A stretch of DNA of 64,000 bases from Candidatus Poseidoniales archaeon (GTDB taxonomy: Archaea; Thermoplasmatota; Poseidoniia; Poseidoniales; Thalassarchaeaceae), in NCBI GenBank assembly GCA_028283505.1, contig JAPOFX010000005.1, positions 1,869 through 65,868 on the forward strand, in the 5' to 3' direction. Positions within the stretch are counted from its first letter, which is position 1. Every line of letters starts with the position of its first letter. Below the pieces are notes generated by a model. It saw only the letters and a program-made list of their open reading frames with translations. It was not told where the DNA came from and did no database searches. Positions 24,461 through 35,296 of the stretch are shown here, in pieces. The translations under genes and the position numbers were made by a program.

Positions 24461-25957
24461 ATGGATGCTTACGATGAGCTTCTGGAGATATTGAAAGAAA
24501 TTGATCTAATGAGTCAGGTCAGGAGCCTTCTTGGTTGGGATCAAGAAGTCTTGATGCCTCCTAATGCTGCTAAATTGAGGGGTGAGCAATTGGCATGGAT
24601 TTCCAGAGAGACGCACAAAAGAAAGACCTCGCCAAGAATTGGCAAGTTACTCGAAGAGTTGGAGGCTAATAGTGAATTAAGTGAAGTTGAGGAAGCTAAC
24701 GTCAGGTTGGCTAGAGAGGCTTACGTCAAAGCCACAAAACTACCCACTGAGTTCGTCTCTGAGATGGCTAGGCATAACTCCAAGGCCGTCATATCCTGGA
24801 CAGAGGCTAGGGAGAAGAATGACTTCTCAATATTCAGGGATGACCTAGCCAAATCGATTGACTTCGCAAGAAAAAAGGCAGATTACTTGGGATATGAAAC
24901 TCTTCGATACGATGCTCTCTTGGATATCTATGAATCCGGATTGTCAGTTGCACGTTTGGACCCATTATTTGATGGTCTCAGAAACGAGGTGGCTCCCCTC
25001 ATAAAGTCCGTAGCCGAAAGAGGAGAAGGTCCTGACATGTCGTGGATTACGGATAATTCATGGAGTCGTGAAGGTCAGGAAAGGCTGAGTCAGAAGGTTT
25101 CAGAGGCAATTGGATTTGACTTCGATTCCGGAAGAAGAGATGCTTCCACCCATCCATTTTGTGGAGGTCCTAATCCTGATGATGTTAGATGGACGACGAG
25201 ATACAATGATAATGATCCATTCGGGTCTCTCTACGGCTCGATGCATGAAACTGGTCATGGAACCTATGAGCAGGGACGACCAAGAAATCTCGACTTCCAA
25301 CCCGCGGGATATGCTAACGGTTTAGGGATTCATGAAAGCCAAAGTAGGCTTTGGGAGAATCAGATAGGTCGCTCATATGAGTTCTGTCAATGGATACTTC
25401 CTCTGTGGAAAGAGGAGTTCCCTGAGAACACCAAGAATTTGGATGCCGAGTTACTCTGGAAGTCTGTCAATCTAATTGAGCCCAGCCTGATTCGTGTTGA
25501 TGCAGATGAAGCCACGTACAATATTCATATTATGATAAGATACGAGATTGAGAAGCTTCTGATTTCTGGAGAGCTGGAGGTGGATGATTTACCTGATAGG
25601 TGGGACGACATGTATGAGCAATACCTTGGTGTCAGAGCAGAAGACAGATCATCTGGCGTCCTACAGGACATTCATTGGTCGATGGGGGCGATCGGTTACT
25701 TCCCTACTTACACCCTGGGTAACTTGTATTCTGCTCAGCTTCTTGAGGCTGCTAGAGAGGACCTTCCGGAACATGATTCACAGATAAGCAGGGGGGAGTT
25801 TTCGCCTCTATTACATTGGATGAGAGAAAAGGTCCATCGAAGAGGGAGTATCCTGAGGCCGGCGGAGTTAATTCAAGAAGCATGTGGAGAACCCCCATCA
25901 CCCGAGGCCTTTGTTGAATACTTGAAGAGAAAGGTGGCTCGTCTCTACGGGGTTTAA
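24461..25957 (+). CDS. Carboxypeptidase M32 (Taq-type)
   Basis: LL.WDQE..MP, HPF, HETGH, HESQSRLWEN, IRVDADE, LQDIHWS.G..GYFPTY.LG. Confidence 0.96.
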   Translation: MDAYDELLEILKEIDLMSQVRSLLGWDQEVLMPPNAAKLRGEQLAWISRETHKRKTSPRIGKLLEELEANSELSEVEEANVRLAREAYVKATKLPTEFVSEMARHNSKAVISWTEAREKNDFSIFRDDLAKSIDFARKKADYLGYETLRYDALLDIYESGLSVARLDPLFDGLRNEVAPLIKSVAERGEGPDMSWITDNSWSREGQERLSQKVSEAIGFDFDSGRRDASTHPFCGGPNPDDVRWTTRYNDNDPFGSLYGSMHETGHGTYEQGRPRNLDFQPAGYANGLGIHESQSRLWENQIGRSYEFCQWILPLWKEEFPENTKNLDAELLWKSVNLIEPSLIRVDADEATYNIHIMIRYEIEKLLISGELEVDDLPDRWDDMYEQYLGVRAEDRSSGVLQDIHWSMGAIGYFPTYTLGNLYSAQLLEAAREDLPEHDSQISRGEFSPLLHWMREKVHRRGSILRPAELIQEACGEPPSPEAFVEYLKRKVARLYGV

Positions 25958-26005
25958 TCCGTCGACCAACGAAAGCACGATATCTCAAGGTCTCCCGGAA
26001 GGTGC

Positions 26006-27172
26006 ATGGTAACGATAGCAGTTGATGCGGCCTCTTCTTTCATTCGTGACCTGGGGTCTCCCTGTACTGCTATCTCTCTAAGGGATGGTTCTATTATAGC
26101 TGGGTCCAAGGAAGGCTCACTAATTTGTTGGCTAGCCTCAACTGGGAAAGAGGTTTGGAGGGTATCCGTTGAAGGGCCCATTTCAGATATTGAAACAAGT
26201 CATGACCGTGTGTTTGTAACGGCCTCGTCTTCGCTCTATGCCATCGATGACTCGGACGGTTCGATCTTTTGGAAGAGAGAGCTGGAGGGTGCTAGTGATT
26301 ACGTTCTATCCGTGGAAGGCTCGATTTGGGCGACTTCGTCGGTGTATGAGATAGAGGTCGGAGATTACACCGAGTCATCAATATGGAGATTTAATCGATC
26401 CGGCGAGTTGGTGAAGCGATGGGTTATTCCAGAGAGATGCTGGTTTATTGGCCCCTCATTCGGGAAAATAATCTTGGGGCTGGGAAGACCTAGGTGTGGA
26501 ATTCTAAGTATCGATGGTGATGATCTGGTTCATTTTGAGATTGGGGATGGAAATCCGATAGTTTGTGGGGATTACACAACACAAGACGGTGGATCGGCAA
26601 TATCCATACTTGGCCATTCCAGTGGCGCGGTATCTTGGGTGGAAGGACATACTGAAGAAGTGAAAGACCAAAATCGGATCGGTTCGCCTTGGCGGGCCCC
26701 CATTATCGAAGAGTCAAGCGCGGCCTGCTGCATTCTGGTTCCAGGCATCGGTTCCGAGTTCATTACAGCATACGAAAACGGGTTTATCAAGAGTAATTAT
26801 GGATGGAGCTATGATGCTCAATCTGCAGTGTCTGCGATGGCAGTTGGGCCCTCTGGCGATGGAGAGACTAGACGGACCTATTGGGCCTGTGCAGGTCGGA
26901 GGGTTCTGGTACTATCAAGTCCAGATACAGCAGGGGATGTTGATAATTCTGAGGCTCCCGGAGGTCAATTGATATTGGAATTGAGGCATGAATGCCGTCT
27001 TGTCGAACCTAACTCAGAAGGAGATACAATAGTCCTCGGGGATGAAAGAGGCAGAATCTACTCGATTAACGGCCAATTCCTCCGCAGAAGGATAGAGGAA
27101 GGGGGCGTAGGGATTAACAGTGACAAAAGGATATCTGTAATGAGAGAGCGATTGAGGAAGCTCCGCGAGTAA
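26006..27172 (+). CDS. PQQ-like beta-propeller repeat protein
   Basis: Repeats such as G.LICW...TGKEVW and LYAID..DG...WK. Confidence 0.7.
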   Translation: MVTIAVDAASSFIRDLGSPCTAISLRDGSIIAGSKEGSLICWLASTGKEVWRVSVEGPISDIETSHDRVFVTASSSLYAIDDSDGSIFWKRELEGASDYVLSVEGSIWATSSVYEIEVGDYTESSIWRFNRSGELVKRWVIPERCWFIGPSFGKIILGLGRPRCGILSIDGDDLVHFEIGDGNPIVCGDYTTQDGGSAISILGHSSGAVSWVEGHTEEVKDQNRIGSPWRAPIIEESSAACCILVPGIGSEFITAYENGFIKSNYGWSYDAQSAVSAMAVGPSGDGETRRTYWACAGRRVLVLSSPDTAGDVDNSEAPGGQLILELRHECRLVEPNSEGDTIVLGDERGRIYSINGQFLRRRIEEGGVGINSDKRISVMRERLRKLRE

Positions 27173-27176
27173 AAAA

Positions 27177-27220
27177 TTACAGTGGAAATTAACATTTACA
27201 GACCCTCATTTCCACTGTAA
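27177..27220. repeat. Perfect 13-bp inverted repeat resembling archaeal origin recognition boxes
   Basis: TTACAGTGGAAAT (27177-27189) and ATTTCCACTGTAA (27208-27220), 18-bp spacer. The repeat is certain; the ORB identity is inferred. Confidence 0.6.
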
Positions 27221-27233
27221 ACGTGATACTAAG

Positions 27234-27248
27234 CGAAAGGTTTATTTG
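27234..27248 (+). promoter_or_regulatory. Archaeal promoter (BRE + TATA) for candidate ncRNA
   Basis: CGAAAGG followed by TTTATTTG. A TGC initiator-like site at 27271-27273 lies at the expected distance. Confidence 0.7.
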
Positions 27249-27271
27249 CCGTCGCTTGTCCTGTTGACTCT

Positions 27272-27943
27272 GCCGCTCCGGGGGAGTGGTGTGGGCAAGC
27301 TTCGGCAAACCCGCGGGCCACAAAAACCGTATCCGCAAAGTCGGAGAGGTAGAACCGGGATCCGAAAGGTGAACGGGGAACAGTTGAATCGTCTGTGGAC
27401 GAGGAGACGGCAGTAGAACCGATGTGGAAATAGCCGGACGCAAGGAAGGGGAAAGAAGCGACGGGGGAAGCTGGGGAAAACGAAACCGAACCCTTCGGGG
27501 GGAAAACACAAACCGTACCAGAAAACCATGCTGCAGAGGTACACGAGAAAAGGGAAAGGAACCAGAGATGGAAACGATCCTAGAAATCGGGTGTGGGGAA
27601 CAAAAGTGGAGAAAACCGGACGCAAGGAAGGGGAGAGAAACTAGAGGGAAACACACCGGGAACGAGAGCAGGGAGACCTGTGGAGGACCGGTACCGATCG
27701 AGGATTAAAATGGTGACACTAGCCATGGAGAGAGACGACGAGGGCATTGAAGGAGCGATCCTTCAAGGGGGATATTACCCCAACAAGTCCAGAAAAAGAC
27801 AAAGGGACCCTAGAGGCCCCAGAGTCATCTACCCGGGAAATCCTAGGTAACTAGGAGGAACCGGACCCTGCGGAGTACGCAGGGGGGAAGCTTCCCCAAG
27901 CTGAACCCCTGCTGCTCCCACCCTTTCTTGGCCCTTTCAAACA
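27272..27943 (+). ncRNA. Candidate large structured non-coding RNA (~670 nt), family unknown
   Basis: Promoter upstream and T-tract downstream. Many tetraloop hairpins (UUCG 27301 and 27494; GAAA 27364; GAGA 27565 and 27673; GCGA 27755; GUAA 27847). 5'/3' complementarity. Only 18 T in 240 nt (27421-27660). No credible ORF. Confidence 0.7.
27424..27639 (+). repeat. 34-nt direct repeat, two copies 182 nt apart
   Basis: GTGGAAATAGCCGGACGCAAGGAAGGGGAAAGAA (27424-27457) vs GTGGAGAAAACCGGACGCAAGGAAGGGGAGAGAA (27606-27639), 30/34 identical. Confidence 0.85.
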
Positions 27944-27953
27944 TTTTTTTCTT
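27921..27953 (+). terminator. Pyrimidine/oligo-T terminator-like tract
   Basis: CCCTTTCTTGGCCCTTTCAAACATTTTTTTCTT directly after the purine-rich region. Archaeal terminators are U-tracts. Confidence 0.6.
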
Positions 27954-27962
27954 ACAAGGGTT

Positions 27963-29561
27963 CTACCTAGTACCTGTCATCAGTTCGGGTCTAACCCATT
28001 CATCGAATTGATCTTCCGTTAGTGCCCCTAATTCCAATGCACTCTCTCTAAGAGTTAGGTTGTTTTTGTGGGCATTTTTTGCAATCTTCGCTGCATTGTC
28101 ATACCCAATATGAGGGTTCAAGGCTGTCACTAACATCAACGAGTTCTCCAAATGTTCAGCGATCCTAACCTCATTGGCCCTCAGGCCCTTGATGCAGTTA
28201 TCAGTGAATGATCTGCAGCCATCAGAAATTATCCTGATTGAGTGGAGCAGATTGTAAATCATCATTGGCTTGAAAACGTTTAGCTCGAAATTGCCCTGAC
28301 TCCCTCCGATAGAGATAGCCATGTGGTTTCCCATCACCTGACAACATATCATCGTCAAAGCTTCTGACTGTGTGGGATTGACCTTTCCAGGCATTATGCT
28401 AGATCCCGGCTCATTGGCTGGAAGGGACAATTCTCCTATCCCGCATCTGGGCCCCGAGCCCAGCCACCTAACATCATTGGCTATTTTCATCAAGGAGGCC
28501 GCAAGAGTATTCAGAGCGCCTGAAGCTGATACAACTGCATCGTGGGCCGCAATCTGAGAGAATTTGTTGTGAGCACTAGTGAATGGTAACCCGGTTTTTG
28601 CGGCGATTTTTGATGCGACCAAATCTGGGAAATCGGGATGAGTGTTCAGACCGGTACCTACTGCTGTTCCACCAAGAGCTAATTCGTACAGATCGATGAG
28701 GGAGAACTCAATCCTCCTAATATCTGCATCTAGCATTGAAACATATCCAGAGAATTCCTGGCCGAGGGTAAGAGGTACAGCATCCATGAGATGGGTCCTC
28801 CCGATTTTGACGATGGAGTCAAACTCCTTTGATTTGAACGAAAGGGCTTCCCTTAGATAGTGTAGCGAAGGTAAAAGTACGTTTGTGATCTGTTCGACTG
28901 ACGATATATGCATGGCTGTTGGAAAGGTGTCGTTACTGGACTGTGCCCTATTGACATGGTCATTAGGGTGCACTGGCGTCTTGCTCCCGAGCCTCCCTCC
29001 AGCAAGTTCGATCGCTCTATTGGCTATGACCTCGTTAGCATTCATGTTTGTCTGGGTACCGGAACCGGTTTGCCACACACTAAGAGGAAAGTGTTCGTCT
29101 AGACTTCCTGAAATGACCTCCTTGCACGAAGATACAATCAGAGATTCTACGTCTTTATCTAATTCCCCGAGTTCAGAATTGGATTCAGCTGCCGACATCT
29201 TTAGGATTCCAAAGGCTCTGATTATTGATCTTGGCATTGTTTCCTCACCAATATCGAAATTTTCCAGAGATCTGGCAGTCTGAGCACCATAATATCTGTC
29301 GGCAGGGACTTCTATCTCTCCCATGGTATCAACTTCTACCCTTAACTCAGATGGATTTGCCCTTGCAGACCTCGGTTCTGCGATAGGTTCATTGGCATCA
29401 CTCAGCATATTTCGGGATAGTCCGTCCTCGATCATCTTGGCAATTGTTGCCGACCTGCCACTAGATTTTCCTTTCCCTACCCTTCGATCTAACTTTCTAG
29501 CGGTTTCCTCGGGTATACTGATGCTTATGATTCTTCGATCTCCAGCGCGGTGCTTTGCCAT
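27963..29561 (-). CDS. fumC: Class II fumarate hydratase with N-terminal ribbon-helix-helix-like domain
   Basis: From about residue 74: [61 protein letters not shown]. Residues 9-50 read [15 protein letters not shown]...[11 protein letters not shown]. Confidence 0.95.
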
Positions 29562-29571
29562 GTAGTTCCGA

Positions 29572-29600
29572 TTTATTAATTATTAATAAAATTAATTATT
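29572..29600. promoter_or_regulatory. AT-rich palindrome over the fumC promoter region (candidate operator)
   Basis: TTTATTAAT-T-ATTAATAAA (29572-29590), with ATTAATTATT repeated at 29575 and 29591. Lies 11-39 bp upstream of the ATG. Confidence 0.55.
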
Positions 29601-29623
29601 GGCTCGCCATACGACGATTATTA

Positions 29624-30109
29624 TTACAATCTGGTCACACTTATGATTTTCTGAGGATCGTATGGCCTATCTCCGGGCTTGGTATCACAGCCCTCAATCT
29701 TGTATACGTTCTCCATTCCCTCAATAACCTCTCCAAAAATTGCATGATTCCCATCTAACCATGGGGTTGGCACTGTTGTGAGGAAAAACTGTGATCCCCC
29801 TGTATTTGGGCCTGCATTCGCCATTGAGAATAATCCTGGCCTATCATGCCTCTTTGCCAGAGCCGATGGCTCACAGTCAATCTTCCACCCTGGTCCCCCT
29901 GTTCCTGCTCTTCCATCAAATGGATCTTTGGATCTGGGGCATCCTCCTTGAATCATGAAATTCTTGATTACACGATGGAAGTGCAATCCATCATAGAAAC
30001 CATCGTCCACTAATTTCAGGAAGTTGCCTGTAGTTTCCGGGCAGTCCTCAGTGTACAGTGCAATATCAATATCTCCAGCGCTCGTCATCATCCTAACTGT
30101 GGTTGGCAT
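29624..30109 (-). CDS. Cyclophilin-type peptidyl-prolyl isomerase
   Basis: P.T..NF, FY.GL.FHRVI..FMIQGG, SMANAGPNT.GSQFF, WLDG.H.IFG.V. Confidence 0.96.
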   Translation of the reverse strand: MPTTVRMMTSAGDIDIALYTEDCPETTGNFLKLVDDGFYDGLHFHRVIKNFMIQGGCPRSKDPFDGRAGTGGPGWKIDCEPSALAKRHDRPGLFSMANAGPNTGGSQFFLTTVPTPWLDGNHAIFGEVIEGMENVYKIEGCDTKPGDRPYDPQKIISVTRL

Positions 30110-30206
30110 GTATGTGCGTGATGCACACAGTCCAATAGTGTAACTACTGTAAGTAGTAAGAATTCATACTTTGAAAATGCAGAAATTTGACTGAAGTAAT
30201 CGAGAT

Positions 30207-30605
30207 TCAGGCCACCATTGATCCTGGAAGTACGCCTTCTGGAAGATCTAACAGCCTTACAGAACCGTCGGGATCAAGTGCCCCTAAAACTAGGAATTGG
30301 GATACAAAACCTGTCGGTAAAGTCTTGTCACCTAAGTTGACAGCTCCTACTACCATTCTCCCTATCAAATCATGACGTGGGTAGTTCGTAATCTGGGCTG
30401 AGCTCCATAGCTTCCCGATTATCGGGCCAAAATCAACCTGGATTTTGTATGATGGCTTATTCATCTCAGGGAATCTCTGGACGTCGACAATAACTCCGGC
30501 CCTCAAATCTAGATCGAAGTACGCAGATGCCCCTACGTATTCCTTTCTGGGCAGTTTTGTTGGATCGTATGGTTTTCCTTGCGAATCGATGATGTGTTTG
30601 TCCAA
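30207..30605 (-). CDS. csaA: tRNA-binding / CsaA-like protein
   Basis: LDLRAG.I, YK..VDFG, SSAQIT.Y, VN, F.S..LVLG. TTG start. Confidence 0.85.
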   Translation of the reverse strand: MDKHIIDSQGKPYDPTKLPRKEYVGASAYFDLDLRAGVIVDVQRFPEMNKPSYKIQVDFGPIIGKLWSSAQITNYPRHDLIGRMVVGAVNLGDKTLPTGFVSQFLVLGALDPDGSVRLLDLPEGVLPGSMVA

Positions 30606-31193
30606 TCAATCACCCGTGACATCCGACCTTAGAATTAGAGGAATCAGTTTAATACCGGCTGATTTGAATGCTTCCATCCCTCCCTCTTCCCTATCAAGAA
30701 TTGTCACGCAAGCTACTATTTCGCAACCCATTGATTTCATCATTGATGCTGCTTTCAGCGCGGACCCGCCTGTTGTAGTAACGTCTTCCAACAGAATCAC
30801 TCTGTCTCCTGATCTAATCGTAGAACCCTCAATGCCAGGTGGGTTTCCGGTTTTCCTACCTCCTCTTCCCTTTGGCTCTTTCCTTACCATGAAACCCCTT
30901 ATTTTCGATCCTTTTCCAGCCTTTGAAATCGCTATTGCGGTCAAAGGGACTGCCCCGAGCTCAAGTCCTCCCACGGCATCGACTCCACCCAAGGAGTCAA
31001 TACAATCATGAATCAATACTCCAATTAAATGCGCACAGTGAGGGTTCATCATTACTGGTTTCATATCGAAAAAATGCGGGCTCTTTCTACCGCTAGCTAG
31101 TGTAAATTGATCATCCGAGGAATGGAGATATGCTAATTCTCTTACTCTCTCAATTAGCTGGACCTTTGCTTTTTGTGGTGAAATTTGCTGCAT
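30606..31193 (-). CDS. pyrE: Orotate phosphoribosyltransferase
   Basis: FTLASG.KS..FFD.K, GG.ELGAVP, VRKE.K, LEDVTTTGGS, DREEG. Confidence 0.93.
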   Translation of the reverse strand: MQQISPQKAKVQLIERVRELAYLHSSDDQFTLASGRKSPHFFDMKPVMMNPHCAHLIGVLIHDCIDSLGGVDAVGGLELGAVPLTAIAISKAGKGSKIRGFMVRKEPKGRGGRKTGNPPGIEGSTIRSGDRVILLEDVTTTGGSALKAASMMKSMGCEIVACVTILDREEGGMEAFKSAGIKLIPLILRSDVTGD

Positions 31194-31321
31194 GACCAAT
31201 TACCCTCCGGCGATAGGACTGGCATGAAGGTTCGGTTTAGAAATTGTCTAAAAGTGGATAAACACGGTCAATGTTCTTGTGCGGCCCGTCATGTGGGTTG
31301 GAATTACTGGGGGTCGGTGAG

Positions 31322-34300
31322 ATGAGTGGGGGCATAGGAAGTGTTTCTCAATTCGATCAACAAAGGTTGGTCTCAGAAGTTGAATCATACCAACTATGGT
31401 TAGACTCGAAGACTCAAGAAGCTTATGATATTGCTAAAATTGCCAAGGCAAAGGGTCATGATTTCAGTACTGAAATAGAAATTCCCAGGGCCTCTGATTT
31501 AGCCAGTAGAACTGAAAAACTACTTGAGGAGTATCTGAAGGGATTGGAAATAGAAGAGGGATTAAGGGAGATTCTATTAAATACTGACAGAGAGAGTGCT
31601 TCTATTCAGATTGCAGTTGATGTATCAAAGAGGATGTATGCTCGCGATGGTGACCTGAGGGAGGCTATTGATTGTGGGCTCAGGGTTGGGCTCGCAGTAC
31701 TAACCGAGGCCGTTCTTGTAGCTCCTCTTGATGGGATAGGGGCTGTAAGAATTCTCAATAATTCAGATGGCTCGGAATTTCTATCAATAGACTTCTGCGG
31801 ACCGATAAGAGCTGCTGGTGGCACAGCCCAAGCAATGTGCGTACTTATCGGAGATATGATTAGACGGGAATTGGGCATTGGTAGGTATACCCCTTCCACG
31901 AGTGAAGTGGAGAGAGTAAAGGAAGAGTTCGGGCTTTACAGAGTGGGGTTGCAATACAAGCCTCCTCCCGAGGAGGTTGAAGTGATTGTAAGAGCGTGTC
32001 CAGTTATGATCAACGGAGAGGAAACTGAGAAGCAGGAATGCGCCGGATTCAAGGAAGTAAAAAATATTCAGAACGAAAATGGCTCCTTTAGAACAAGGGT
32101 CAGGGGGGGTGTCATGCTGGTAATTGGTGAGGGGCTATGCCTCAAAGCCCCAAAAATCGTGAAGCATACAGAAAGAATGGAGATATCTGGGTGGGAATTC
32201 ATATCACAATTCGCCCAGAAGGGAAAAGATGATTCTTCCAAGTCCAAGAGTTTCAAAAGTCGTCAAATTCCCGAGATTTCAAGATACATGGATGATGTTA
32301 TTGCTGGACGTCCAATATTTGGAGAGCCATGTGAGCCGGGGGGTTTTAGGCTGAGGTATGGCAGAAGCAGGGCTACTGGATTGGCGGCAGCTGGATTGAA
32401 TCCTGTTTCCATGAAAGCAGCAGGAGGATTTCTTTCAGTCGGAACACAAATGAAAATTGAGCGTCCAGGTAAAGCCTGCGCTGTTACTCCATGTGCGGAA
32501 ATAGAAGGCCCAATGGTAATCCTGGACAACGGAGAGTTTCGAAGAGTGGATGCCATGGAGGATTGGGAGAAAATCGAGGAGAGAGTCGTTTCAATCTGGG
32601 ATAATGGGGAGATACTGATTGGATTTGGTGAGTTTCTTGAGAATAACAAGTCCCTGGTACCTTCCGCATACAATAGGGATTGGTGGGCTGCAGATTTAGC
32701 GGAATCCTTGGACCAGCCGCATAAAGTCATTGAATTTGCCGAGATAATGGGACTCGACGTCGGTCAGCTTCCAAGCGGTCTACCCTTCAACGGAGCGGTA
32801 TCTCGAGGTGGAGAAGATCCTCTGGAAAGAGAATGGCGGAAAAGAGCGTGGTATGTTTATCTTAGAGATCTGAAATTGGATTGGGTCCAATCAAAGAAAA
32901 TTGGGGAGTCGTTTGGAACAGCGGTTCCCCCTCCTTGGAATCTATGGTGGTCGGATCTTCCAATCTCAATAGTAAATCCACTAACTGAATCATTAATTGG
33001 CTCGACTGTGGAAGAAGCGGGTCTGAGAATTTCCAATGCTTCTGAAGGATGGGGTTCCGGTTCAACATTTGGTTCAGATCTTTCGCAGGAGCCTGATTTT
33101 GATAGGTGGCCTTCTTGGATGTCAATAGAAGAACACGGTATTACCAAGTCTGCTCTCATGACGCTGGGATTAGCTCATTTACATAGCAATGGTGATATCA
33201 TAGTACCCAGAAATTGGGAAGGACTTCTTGAAGGGCTGGGCCTGATAAACGAATCTGGGGTTGTGAGCCGTTCAGTGGACTCCGCTGATCACATAGAAGA
33301 TCGCCTTGGGAGAATTAAGGCGGCCAGAGAGATAGTCGGAGCAGAGGAAGCGAGATTAAGAGATCTGGAGAGTAGAAAGGGGGTTGCAAGGGTTCGTGCT
33401 ACAACTGTGGCAATGCAGGAAGGAAAGGGGACATTGGAAACCGAAGCAATTGGGGATAAGGCCTCCGAGGCAATCCAAGATCCTGGGCCCGCTGATAGTA
33501 TCGAGCTCAGAAAATCTGTCTCATTGATAGATGACCATACTGTCGATGGGGCACTTTGGCTGGTTAGGAAGGTTTCCTCATGCAGGTGGGAGGATTCAGC
33601 AACTTGTCGAATAGGTGCCAGAATGGGGAGGCCTGAGAAGTCCGGGGTAAGAGAGATGAAGCCTATGGTTCATGCACTTTATCCAATTGCTGAAACTGGT
33701 GGCCCACAGAGACTAATTGGGGAGTCTTCCTCAAAAGGTAGCATCAGGGTCCAGATGGGTCCGAGGATATGTACCGTATGTGGCTCCGAATCCCCCCATA
33801 TCAGATGCCACAAAAGACCTGATCCAAATGTTCCAATAGAGTGTGGGGGAAGAACAGAGGAACGAAAGAAAAGAGGAGGCAATAGGAGGAGGAGGGGGGA
33901 ATTCACCACTGTTCCAATTTCATCCATATTGGAGGTCAAAAGAAGATCCTTGGGTTTAGATAAGCTACCTTCAAAAATTAAGGCTGTTAAGGGGTTGATA
34001 TCCATCGGACAATCCCCTGAGCCGTTGGAGAAGGGAATTCTCAGAGCGAAGCATGGTGTGTCAGTTTTCAGGGATGGTACTTCCAGATACGATATGAGTG
34101 ATGTCCCGGTGACTCATTTCAAACCTGTTGAGATTGGTACTCCGTGGGAGTCTTTGGTCAGACTTGGCTATACACATGATATTCGTGGGAATCAGTTGAG
34201 CTCCGATACTCAGATGCTTGAGTTGTTGCCCCAAGATTTCATACCTTCAATTAGATCTAAGGACCATCTTCTTGCTACTTGCGGATTCGTTGATGATCTT

Positions 34301-35296
34301 CTCATTCGTTTCTATGGCATGGAGCCGTTTTACAACGCCTTGACCGAGATTGACTTAGTGGGCAGACTTGCTATCGGTCTTGCCCCTCATACTTCGGGAG
34401 GAGTCCTGTGTAGAATTATTGGGTGGACTTCTTCCTCTGCAGGGTATGCGCATCCATTGTTCCACGCTGCAAAAAGAAGAAACTGCGATGGGGATGAGGA
34501 CAGTATAATGATGCTAATGGACGGTCTTTTGAATTTCTCAAAGGAAATCTTGCCAGCTGGTAGGGGAGGGAGAATGGATGCCCCTCTTGTACTAACTACT
34601 AGGCTAAATCCTATGGAGATAGATAAGGAGGCACTGAATGTAGACTGTTCCTGGAGTTATTCGAGGGCATTCTATGAGGCGTCCCTATCACAACCACACC
34701 CCAGTGAGGCATCTAATTTGGTAGATCTAGTGAGTGACAGGCTTGGGACGATAGGGGATCTCCGGGGATATGGATGGACCCATGACTCCGGAGAGTTAGA
34801 TTCCGGGCCGATTAATTCCGCATACAAGACACTAGTCAGCATGACTGACAAGATGGGCGAGCAATTGGCTCTTGGAAGTAGGCTTCGTTCTGTTAGTGTG
34901 GACAGGGTTGCGTCGCAGGTCATAGAATCTCACTTCCTCCCTGATATGAGAGGGAACATGATGGCCTTCACGAGGCAGAAGGTTAGGTGTGTGAAGTGTG
35001 GTCACTCTTATCGGAGGATGCCTCTAGCAGGGAAGTGCATTCAAAGGGCTGGGGCTCTTTCAAGAGGGCCTAGGTTCTCCAGCTCCGACGATGGTGTGGC
35101 GACATGTGGGGGGAACGTTGTCTTGACCGTTTCCGAGGGAGCTGTGAGAAAGTATATCCAGGTAACCAAAGAGGTTATGGAAAATTATGGCGTTGATGAT
35201 TACACGAAACAACGAGTTGATTGGATGTCGGACAGCGTAGATTCTCTTTTCAATAACGACAAAGTGACTGTGATGACTTTGGAGGATTTCTTGTAG
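31322..35296 (+). CDS. polC: DNA polymerase D large subunit (DP2)
   Basis: GLAVLTE...APL.GI, GPIRAAGGT, GGFRLRYGRSR, RIGARMGRPEK, EPLEKGILRAK, HAAKRRNCDGDED, C-terminal CxxC..C..CGG. GGTGA RBS before ATG 31322. Confidence 0.97.
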   Translation: MSGGIGSVSQFDQQRLVSEVESYQLWLDSKTQEAYDIAKIAKAKGHDFSTEIEIPRASDLASRTEKLLEEYLKGLEIEEGLREILLNTDRESASIQIAVDVSKRMYARDGDLREAIDCGLRVGLAVLTEAVLVAPLDGIGAVRILNNSDGSEFLSIDFCGPIRAAGGTAQAMCVLIGDMIRRELGIGRYTPSTSEVERVKEEFGLYRVGLQYKPPPEEVEVIVRACPVMINGEETEKQECAGFKEVKNIQNENGSFRTRVRGGVMLVIGEGLCLKAPKIVKHTERMEISGWEFISQFAQKGKDDSSKSKSFKSRQIPEISRYMDDVIAGRPIFGEPCEPGGFRLRYGRSRATGLAAAGLNPVSMKAAGGFLSVGTQMKIERPGKACAVTPCAEIEGPMVILDNGEFRRVDAMEDWEKIEERVVSIWDNGEILIGFGEFLENNKSLVPSAYNRDWWAADLAESLDQPHKVIEFAEIMGLDVGQLPSGLPFNGAVSRGGEDPLEREWRKRAWYVYLRDLKLDWVQSKKIGESFGTAVPPPWNLWWSDLPISIVNPLTESLIGSTVEEAGLRISNASEGWGSGSTFGSDLSQEPDFDRWPSWMSIEEHGITKSALMTLGLAHLHSNGDIIVPRNWEGLLEGLGLINESGVVSRSVDSADHIEDRLGRIKAAREIVGAEEARLRDLESRKGVARVRATTVAMQEGKGTLETEAIGDKASEAIQDPGPADSIELRKSVSLIDDHTVDGALWLVRKVSSCRWEDSATCRIGARMGRPEKSGVREMKPMVHALYPIAETGGPQRLIGESSSKGSIRVQMGPRICTVCGSESPHIRCHKRPDPNVPIECGGRTEERKKRGGNRRRRGEFTTVPISSILEVKRRSLGLDKLPSKIKAVKGLISIGQSPEPLEKGILRAKHGVSVFRDGTSRYDMSDVPVTHFKPVEIGTPWESLVRLGYTHDIRGNQLSSDTQMLELLPQDFIPSIRSKDHLLATCGFVDDLLIRFYGMEPFYNALTEIDLVGRLAIGLAPHTSGGVLCRIIGWTSSSAGYAHPLFHAAKRRNCDGDEDSIMMLMDGLLNFSKEILPAGRGGRMDAPLVLTTRLNPMEIDKEALNVDCSWSYSRAFYEASLSQPHPSEASNLVDLVSDRLGTIGDLRGYGWTHDSGELDSGPINSAYKTLVSMTDKMGEQLALGSRLRSVSVDRVASQVIESHFLPDMRGNMMAFTRQKVRCVKCGHSYRRMPLAGKCIQRAGALSRGPRFSSSDDGVATCGGNVVLTVSEGAVRKYIQVTKEVMENYGVDDYTKQRVDWMSDSVDSLFNNDKVTVMTLEDFL

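Follow-up and report, generated by a model that had tools for sequence, protein, structure and literature searches.

Few enzymes double as transcription factors; those that do reveal how metabolic flux can be sensed directly. PutA of E. coli and Salmonella, a bacterial protein, represses its own operon, and flavin reduction together with membrane binding acts as its switch. BirA and NadR are trigger enzymes, in which a fused DNA-binding domain goes together with an enzyme that reports its own metabolite. NikR is a tetramer that presents two ribbon-helix-helix (RHH) dimers; RHH domains act as obligate dimers with an intertwined two-stranded ribbon that contacts DNA in a sequence-specific manner, and their helix B is capped by a G-x-S/T/N turn that touches the DNA backbone. 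FumC, the class II fumarate hydratase, is a homotetramer. Described here is a fumC gene from an uncultured Marine Group II archaeon (Candidatus Poseidoniales archaeon, assembly GCA_028283505.1), in which the fumarase is preceded in the same reading frame by what is very probably a CopG/NikR-like RHH domain. The gene lies in a 64,000-nucleotide stretch of contig JAPOFX010000005.1 (positions 1,869 to 65,868, forward strand), which is termed the window and to which coordinates refer unless another contig is named. The host genome consists of 1.30 Mb on 23 contigs, is 89% complete and has 48% G+C. The best explanation of the locus, to which a probability of roughly one half is assigned, is an active class II fumarase whose tethered RHH domain binds its own promoter and represses it by feedback.

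The fusion protein is similar to PutA in displaying an N-terminal RHH domain of ~45-50 residues, a linker and a metabolic enzyme, and the operator-bound RHH domain of PutA (PDB 2rbf) is a structural neighbor of the modeled domain (Z 4.5, root-mean-square deviation 2.4 over 43 residues). However the two RHH domains show only 9% identity in the structural alignment, and the PutA enzyme is a proline dehydrogenase/pyrroline-5-carboxylate dehydrogenase whereas the enzyme found here is a fumarase-family lyase, so that the protein falls outside the PutA family, even if it may act in a similar way. By sequence the closest RHH subfamily is that of NikR. Pyrococcus NikR (2bj1_A) shows 28% identity (Z 4.4), both proteins have a long G-rich loop that ends in R-S before helix B, and the tetramer geometry of NikR would be that expected for a FumC tetramer. 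The effector part differs, being a small nickel-binding ACT-like domain in NikR and a 459-residue fumarase here, and a Pfam search of the fusion protein gave no match to NikR_C. E. coli FumC, human FH and yeast Fum1 align with the core from end to end, but are without a counterpart of residues 1-62. N-terminal extensions of eukaryotic fumarases are mitochondrial targeting peptides and not folded DNA-binding domains. BirA and NadR embody the same concept, but with winged-helix or helix-turn-helix domains and in cofactor metabolism. In the literature searched, no tricarboxylic acid (TCA) cycle enzyme with a fused RHH domain was found, and an RHH-fumarase fusion is not described; the portion consulted of an archaeal fusion survey (PMC11237513) mentions only class I fumarase subunit fusions, and its supplements might list the present one. 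The fusion is of the RHH-enzyme trigger type, with fumarase as an RHH partner that is new in the literature searched.

A preliminary description of this DNA had placed about 73 residues ahead of the normal FumC start in one stop-free frame, and this is what the 532-amino-acid (aa) open reading frame (ORF) displays: 73 residues precede the canonical start R74-x-E76-x-D78-x-M80-G81. The accompanying statement that there is no alternative ATG requires correction. In-frame ATGs are present at codons 43, 52 and 80, and the statement stands only for the canonical FumC start itself, where no ATG, GTG or TTG is found. The catalytic motifs, said to be intact, are indeed so. Pfam Lyase_1 matches residues 81-411 (expectation value, E, 6.5e-110), FumaraseC_C matches residues 477-530, and the NCBIfam fumC_II equivalog TIGR00979 is matched with 776.1 bits (cut-off 664.75), residues 74-529 corresponding to profile positions 2-457 of 458. 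The SS loop, which we take to be the signature of the fumarase/aspartase family, is present and is invariant in 18 orthologs save for V394 (at least 90% conserved). Residues 4-462 of E. coli FumC align to residues 73-531 at E ~1e-181, and the human, yeast and E. coli fumarase structures match the fusion protein at E 1e-181 to 1e-198 (human FH, 1e-198). The alignments with solved FumC chains begin no earlier than query residues 63-74, and of the 46 solved sequences that match at E <= 1e-50, which comprise fumarases, aspartases and related lyases, not one aligns with residues 1-62. Similarity at the 60-70% level to solved tetrameric fumarases points to fumarate hydratase activity and a homotetrameric state. 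The class I fumarase family PF05681 was not found in this 89%-complete genome, and thus the fusion protein probably also carries out the fumarase step of the TCA cycle. The fusion of the RHH domain to an intact FumC is real and in frame.

The N-terminal domain opens with a basic arm (M1-R10), which leads into a strand (R10-I16) and helix A (18-28); a G-rich loop that terminates in the invariant G35-R36-S37 then connects to helix B (36-50). An RHH pattern had been proposed for residues 9-50. The pattern is real and is kept in relatives, with the window protein matching Pfam RHH_1 at E 0.0008-0.002 (18.6-19.7 bits, cut-off 20.5); the strand starts at R10 and not at residue 9. RHH_1 also matches the N-domains of all 15 orthologs compared at E <= 0.1 (best 9.7e-5), and one ortholog fragment, P0131, passes the cut-off with 20.7 bits. 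Weak HicB-like antitoxin matches are found in 7 of the 15. A profile of these 15 domains was searched against 1.84 billion protein representatives at E <= 0.001 and retrieved 49 proteins, 38 of them at E <= 1e-10. Twenty of the 49 were inspected, including 13 of the 38; these 13 are fusion fragments, all strong short matches that run on into the linker or FumC or stop at contig breaks. The other seven, with E between 1e-4 and 6e-4, are small independent RHH proteins, and the RHH_1 whole-protein cut-off is exceeded by five (P0166, 34.1 bits; P0167, 34.5; P0168, 24.2; P0169, 22.2; P0171, 30.8). When 401 genomes of the phylum were scanned, weak matches outside the order were found in frames mostly of ~130-165 aa, and two of the four inspected from other Thermoplasmatota are NikR proteins (NikR_C 54-64 bits, RHH_1 28-34 bits). 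The profile matches NikR proteins of other Thermoplasmatota at E 2e-8 to 1e-4, and the closest sequence kin found for the domain thus appear to be the RHH domains of NikR. An hhalign comparison of the N-domain alignment with nine RHH_1/NikR proteins gave a probability of 98.7% (E 2.9e-16, 45 columns), but the test is partly circular because the target RHH proteins had been selected by the query profile. The R-S before helix B is kept in the aligned NikR and RHH_1 proteins (R31 and S32 of the alignment, both invariant) and in a divergent form of the fusion from genus g8. No family was matched when the 53-residue domain was searched against NCBIfam, and the profile found only an 11-residue chance match to alcohol dehydrogenase among PDB sequences. 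A feature-similarity search with residues 1-55 placed CopG-family RHH proteins among the nearest clusters (0.92-0.93), which is taken as a lead only.

The host genome has one other match to the N-domain profile, at C20:63673-64077 (-) (locus L050). It is a stand-alone RHH protein of ~128 aa (RHH_1 26.8 bits), the C-terminal half of which matches no Pfam family at cut-off.

In structure modeling with AlphaFold2, residues 1-52 (mean predicted local distance difference test, pLDDT, 81) fold into an extended segment (9-17), a helix (18-28), a loop and a second helix (36-51). When this model was compared with 48,161 PDB representatives, the best 50 neighbors were nearly all RHH proteins, with Z values of 3.0-5.1. 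They include ArtA (5.1), Rv0298 (5.0), AmrZ (4.8), SvtR (4.6), NikR (4.5), the PutA RHH domain (4.5) and Arc (4.2), together with TacA, TraM, CopA, CdbA, ParG, omega, RelB and FitA. Prediction of a complex of two copies of residues 1-52 scored 0.37 against a mark of 0.42 and is used neither way. In the full-length model the mean pLDDT is 68, the N-domain is of low confidence and residues 50-67 fall below 50. That model is too poor for judging how the N-domain docks on the enzyme, and only the linker region is taken from it.

Conservation of the N-terminal segment is that of a folded domain. In 15 diverse orthologs from three families 19 columns are invariant, and these include H4, G7, R10, I11, S13, S15, P17, E18, L24, D25 and G35-R36-S37. 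The domain has a net charge of +6 (12 K/R, 6 D/E), and it keeps the features that are typical of DNA-binding RHH proteins, i.e., the basic N-terminal arm, the invariant S13 and S15, and G35-R36-S37. Across 18 orthologs, nonsynonymous differences per nonsynonymous site (pN) are 0.21 in the N-domain (0.08 when only the genus is considered), 0.61 in the linker (genus, 0.39) and 0.16 in FumC (genus, 0.10). No dN/dS ratio is given because synonymous sites are saturated (pS 0.70-0.85). The N-domain is under purifying selection as strong as that on the enzyme core. The linker is variable in sequence, and its length stays at ~24-27 residues across orthologs; a conserved domain joined by a variable linker of kept length is the pattern that a folded domain with a flexible tether would leave. 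A targeting or signal peptide was considered and ruled out, as the segment is a conserved, basic, folded domain that is neither hydrophobic nor degenerate. Coordinates are in Table 1.

Table 1. Features of the fumC fusion locus (window coordinates)
Feature	Coordinates	Strand	Description or basis
fumC fusion gene, RHH-linker-FumC	27963..29561	-	single ORF, 532 aa + stop, ATG start
RHH domain (very probable), N-terminal, residues 1-48	29418..29561	-	Pfam RHH_1, AlphaFold2 model, PDB neighbors, hhalign, invariant columns
Linker, residues 49-73, variable, probably disordered	29343..29417	-	pN, length, pLDDT
FumC core, class II fumarate hydratase, residues 74-532	27966..29342	-	TIGR00979, Pfam, solved structures
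Catalytic SS loop, residues 386-395	28377..28406	-	agrees with pattern G-S-S-x-M-P-x-K-x-N
A/T-only run, 30 bases	29571..29600	-	longest of 51 such runs of at least 12 bases in the genome
Perfect 19-bp A/T palindrome, candidate operator	29572..29590	-	9-bp arms, 1-bp center, -29 to -11 from ATG

The distribution of the domain was followed with the 53-residue N-domain as the query in 201 Poseidoniales genomes. The domain is present in most close orthologs, a match being found in 136 of the 201 genomes (family f1, 91 of 99; f2, 1 of 2; f3, 43 of 99) and in 35 of the 61 that are at least 90% complete. Wherever the contig permits, the match sits in an open frame of ~530-585 aa, and full-length orthologs of 528-545 aa align over all of residues 1-120. 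In the 401 genomes of the phylum, strong matches are confined to these three families. No stand-alone or split N-domain was detected in the 201 genomes of the order, the 401 of the phylum or the 1.84 billion protein representatives. An assembly chimera was also considered and is ruled out, as the same junction recurs in independent genomes and in metagenomes.

Eight relatives have an unfused fumarase that starts with M-x-x-V-R-I-E-x-D-T-M-G, and no remnant of the domain was detected upstream of any of the eight. A maximum-likelihood tree of the FumC core was built from 37 distinct rows (29 fused, 8 unfused) after duplicates and truncated or masked rows had been dropped, and was rooted at its midpoint with no outgroup. 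Unfused genes are interspersed among fused ones, with five state changes, at least three of which are forced by well-supported branches, and fused forms are found in all three families. This distribution suggests an old fusion that was lost repeatedly, the direction of change being inferred. Genus g8 displays a divergent RHH-FumC fusion with a shorter loop and linker at loci L051 (G089), L052 (G119) and L073 (G130); it retains the R-S before helix B and has TTATTAA at -28.

The region upstream of the fusion gene was examined for a possible binding site. The spacer upstream of the fumC ATG has 62 bases, and the A/T-only run within it is followed in length by runs of 23 and 20 bases elsewhere in the genome. 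The palindrome, whose 11-base core word is found a single time in the 1.3 Mb of the genome, has the TATA-like word as its upstream arm. In all 47 distinct promoters of fused genes, from many genera, TTATTAA or TTAATAA is present, and in 45 of them it is positioned at -27 to -31; the remaining two look shifted because the script picked an upstream ATG. A second heptamer is present in 11 of the 47, and in genus g9 the fused promoter has two heptamers 20 bases apart. Dyads with arms of 6-9 bp and a center at ~-18 to -20 are found in several genera, their exact sequences being different. Neither heptamer was seen in the 110 bases upstream of the eight unfused genes. Archaeal repressors usually bind over the TATA box and the polymerase entry site, and the promoter element resembles an operator that overlaps both; it is put forward as a candidate.

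The frequency of classic TATA-like 8-mers on both strands of the genome is low: TTTATATA occurs 3 times, TTTAAATA 4 times, TTTAAAAA twice and TTTATTAA 6 times. Since these are rare too, the conserved fumC word is more than the organism's ordinary promoter word, and their rarity in a genome of 48% G+C means that the usual promoter word of these archaea must differ.

From these sequence comparisons, the fusion fumarase is probably also a gene regulator, and its own promoter is the most likely target. As FumC is a tetramer and RHH domains act in pairs, the protein should present two RHH dimers, and the tetramer would display them in the way NikR does. The RHH dimers would bind the A/T dyad over the TATA box and over the stretch from TATA to the start of the apparently leaderless gene, where they could block TBP/TFB or RNA polymerase. 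The level of fumarase would then be set by negative feedback, similar to that of PutA at the put promoter, and occupancy by fumarate or malate might modulate DNA binding. A more specific version can be offered only tentatively, and its correctness is doubtful: the sole fumarase of the organism may be a sequence-specific transcription factor that acts on its own TATA dyad, and perhaps on other promoters, and is released on fumarate or malate loading.

Whether the extension is made at all should be considered. The true start could lie downstream, or a separate or decayed gene could have been joined by an assembly or annotation artefact; there are the in-frame ATGs at codons 43 and 52, and in related lineages fumarase begins at the canonical site. 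Hardly any weight can be given to this, as the same in-frame fusion is present in 136 genomes and in thousands of metagenomic proteins, and purifying selection acts on the domain and not on the linker. The ATG of codon 43 is inside helix B, that of codon 80 follows the conserved R-x-E-x-D, and M52 lacks conservation even among members of the genus. In 47 distinct promoters the TATA-like word keeps its place at ~-28 relative to the first ATG, which fits a leaderless mRNA that starts there; the fixed distance argues for translation from the first ATG, and thus for translation of the RHH domain and against a start downstream of it. In addition, the part that codes for the domain is covered by contigs of four metatranscriptome runs, which come from three studies, and one RNA-library contig, 29272-29623 (X3 record 9), spans the domain, the linker and the FumC start. 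Such contigs give no 5′ ends, may derive from DNA in the libraries and carry no meaning where a stretch is uncovered, and they lend weak support to transcription of the fumC fusion.

If the extension is made, the domain may have a role other than at the fumC promoter. It could bind DNA mainly elsewhere, making fumarase a trans-acting regulator with a regulon that reports the state of the TCA cycle. The same conserved domain of the DNA-binding type would serve, the downstream half of the fumC dyad is not kept in all genera, and on contig C5, near 17915, an ATTAAT-N4-ATTAAT site is found 56 bases before an ORF that by eye is a putative Lrp/AsnC-type regulator. Yet ATTAAT-N0-6-ATTAAT, together with a looser variant, has only four matches at three genome loci, one of them the fumC promoter, which is too few for a regulon; the heptamer is rare as well (25 copies in the whole genome, 3 of them in the fumC promoter), and no conserved second target was identified, so a wider regulon is unlikely. 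Alternatively the domain could tether fumarase to DNA or chromatin and supply fumarate or malate locally, as a hard-wired form of the part that fumarase plays in the DNA damage response of yeast, human cells and B. subtilis. The flexible linker suits tethering, and the class II fumarase of B. subtilis is reported to have a role in the DNA damage response and to co-localize with the nucleoid (PMC5711358; see also the review PMC6068284). This is rather improbable, since RHH domains are typically sequence-specific operator binders and the PDB neighbors are repressors, antitoxins and partition proteins. Moreover the conserved promoter element suggests a specific site, and the neighboring genes, as read from translations, are unrelated to repair (a cyclophilin-type isomerase, a tRNA-binding protein and an orotate phosphoribosyltransferase). 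A function in protein-protein contacts without DNA, whereby the RHH-like domain would stabilize or regulate the tetramer or dock a partner as antitoxins dock toxins, has in its favor that many structural neighbors are antitoxins, that 7 of 15 orthologs have the weak HicB-like matches, and that the enzyme of relatives works without the domain. However in RHH antitoxins the RHH part binds DNA and a separate C-terminal tail binds the toxin. The basic arm, the ribbon serines, the G-R-S cap and the charge of +6 are what DNA contact would select, and no partner gene adjoins fumC in a conserved manner across genera, the upstream sequences being different; a role confined to protein contacts is accordingly given a low probability.

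Several observations speak against a fumarase that represses its own promoter through an RHH domain. The window protein itself scores below the RHH_1 cut-off, and the hhalign result has the circularity mentioned above. Foldseek against PDB gave one weak match, to the TraM N-domain (4qpo_B, E 4.6). The Z values of the structural neighbors are only 3-5, and the tool warns that such values may reflect a common arrangement; values this modest are expected for a model of 50 residues, and the weight of the comparison rests in the uniformity of the neighbor list. At the promoter, A/T-only sequence easily forms palindromes, the conserved A/T word may just be an unusually canonical TATA box, and the segment downstream of TATA is not kept in all genera (e.g., L032, L061, L062, L072). 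The co-occurrence of element and domain is weak evidence because one 5′ deletion could remove both. The FumC tree has three or more places where the domain is lost or absent, and therefore it is not essential. Three RNA-library contigs run past the ATG by 62-134 bases on its upstream side, two of them entering the preceding gene, which misfits a purely leaderless transcript unless they represent read-through or library DNA.

If true, a DNA-binding fumarase would link the TCA cycle to gene control in the uncultured Marine Group II, abundant archaea of the surface ocean that are major in ocean carbon turnover. It would be a trigger enzyme of central carbon metabolism with an RHH-enzyme architecture that is new in the literature searched, and the puzzling association of class II fumarase with DNA, known from bacteria through to humans, would gain a molecular basis built into the protein. 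Where public records name these proteins they do so as "class II fumarate hydratase", the closest ones being from Candidatus Thalassarchaeaceae / Poseidoniales archaea, and among 120 listed matches none is assigned an RHH family; thus the extra domain is currently invisible to annotation. Testing the hypothesis would be inexpensive, since E. coli can serve for production of the protein and the candidate operator has a length of 19 bp.

A FumC-type gene is also present in a sister order of the same class, in family f4, with 46-49% identity and open frames of 535-572 aa (one of 505). The four loci inspected (L078, L079, L080, L082) display a different N-terminal extension of ~95 residues, and upstream of the f4 fumarase are repeated GCATA-type palindromes just before a TATA-like run. 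The N-domain profile matches none of 10 f4 genomes at E <= 0.001, and the f4 extension matches no Pfam RHH family at E <= 1. Should this fumarase, with a module and palindromes of its own, be a parallel case, this would point to selection having favored a coupling of fumarase with DNA more than once.

The genes next to fumC, at 29624-31199 (-) and 31271-35296 (+), appear by eye to encode a cyclophilin-type peptidyl-prolyl isomerase, a small protein with a tRNA-binding domain, an orotate phosphoribosyltransferase and the large subunit of archaeal DNA polymerase II, and show no obvious link to fumarate metabolism. On the other side, between fumC and a convergent ORF of 388 aa (26006-27172, +), is a stretch of 790 bp (27173-27962) that is purine-rich on the + strand and without a convincing ORF. 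Its conservation is at least that of the fumC coding DNA: ten loci of the same genus show 82-93% identity over ~780 bases, three more match in two or part-length pieces, and another genus shows 72% over 549 bases. Rfam searches of 25500-31500 and 27100-28000 gave no match at the gathering threshold or at E <= 1, and the RNase P RNA of the genome is elsewhere (C2, 231 bits). RNAalifold on 13 sequences of the stretch predicts 180 pairs, 29 of which have compensatory double changes; at its end the element has hairpins and, after them, a T-run near 27940-27951. The stretch is put forward as a candidate non-coding RNA, large and structured, of Marine Group II archaea.

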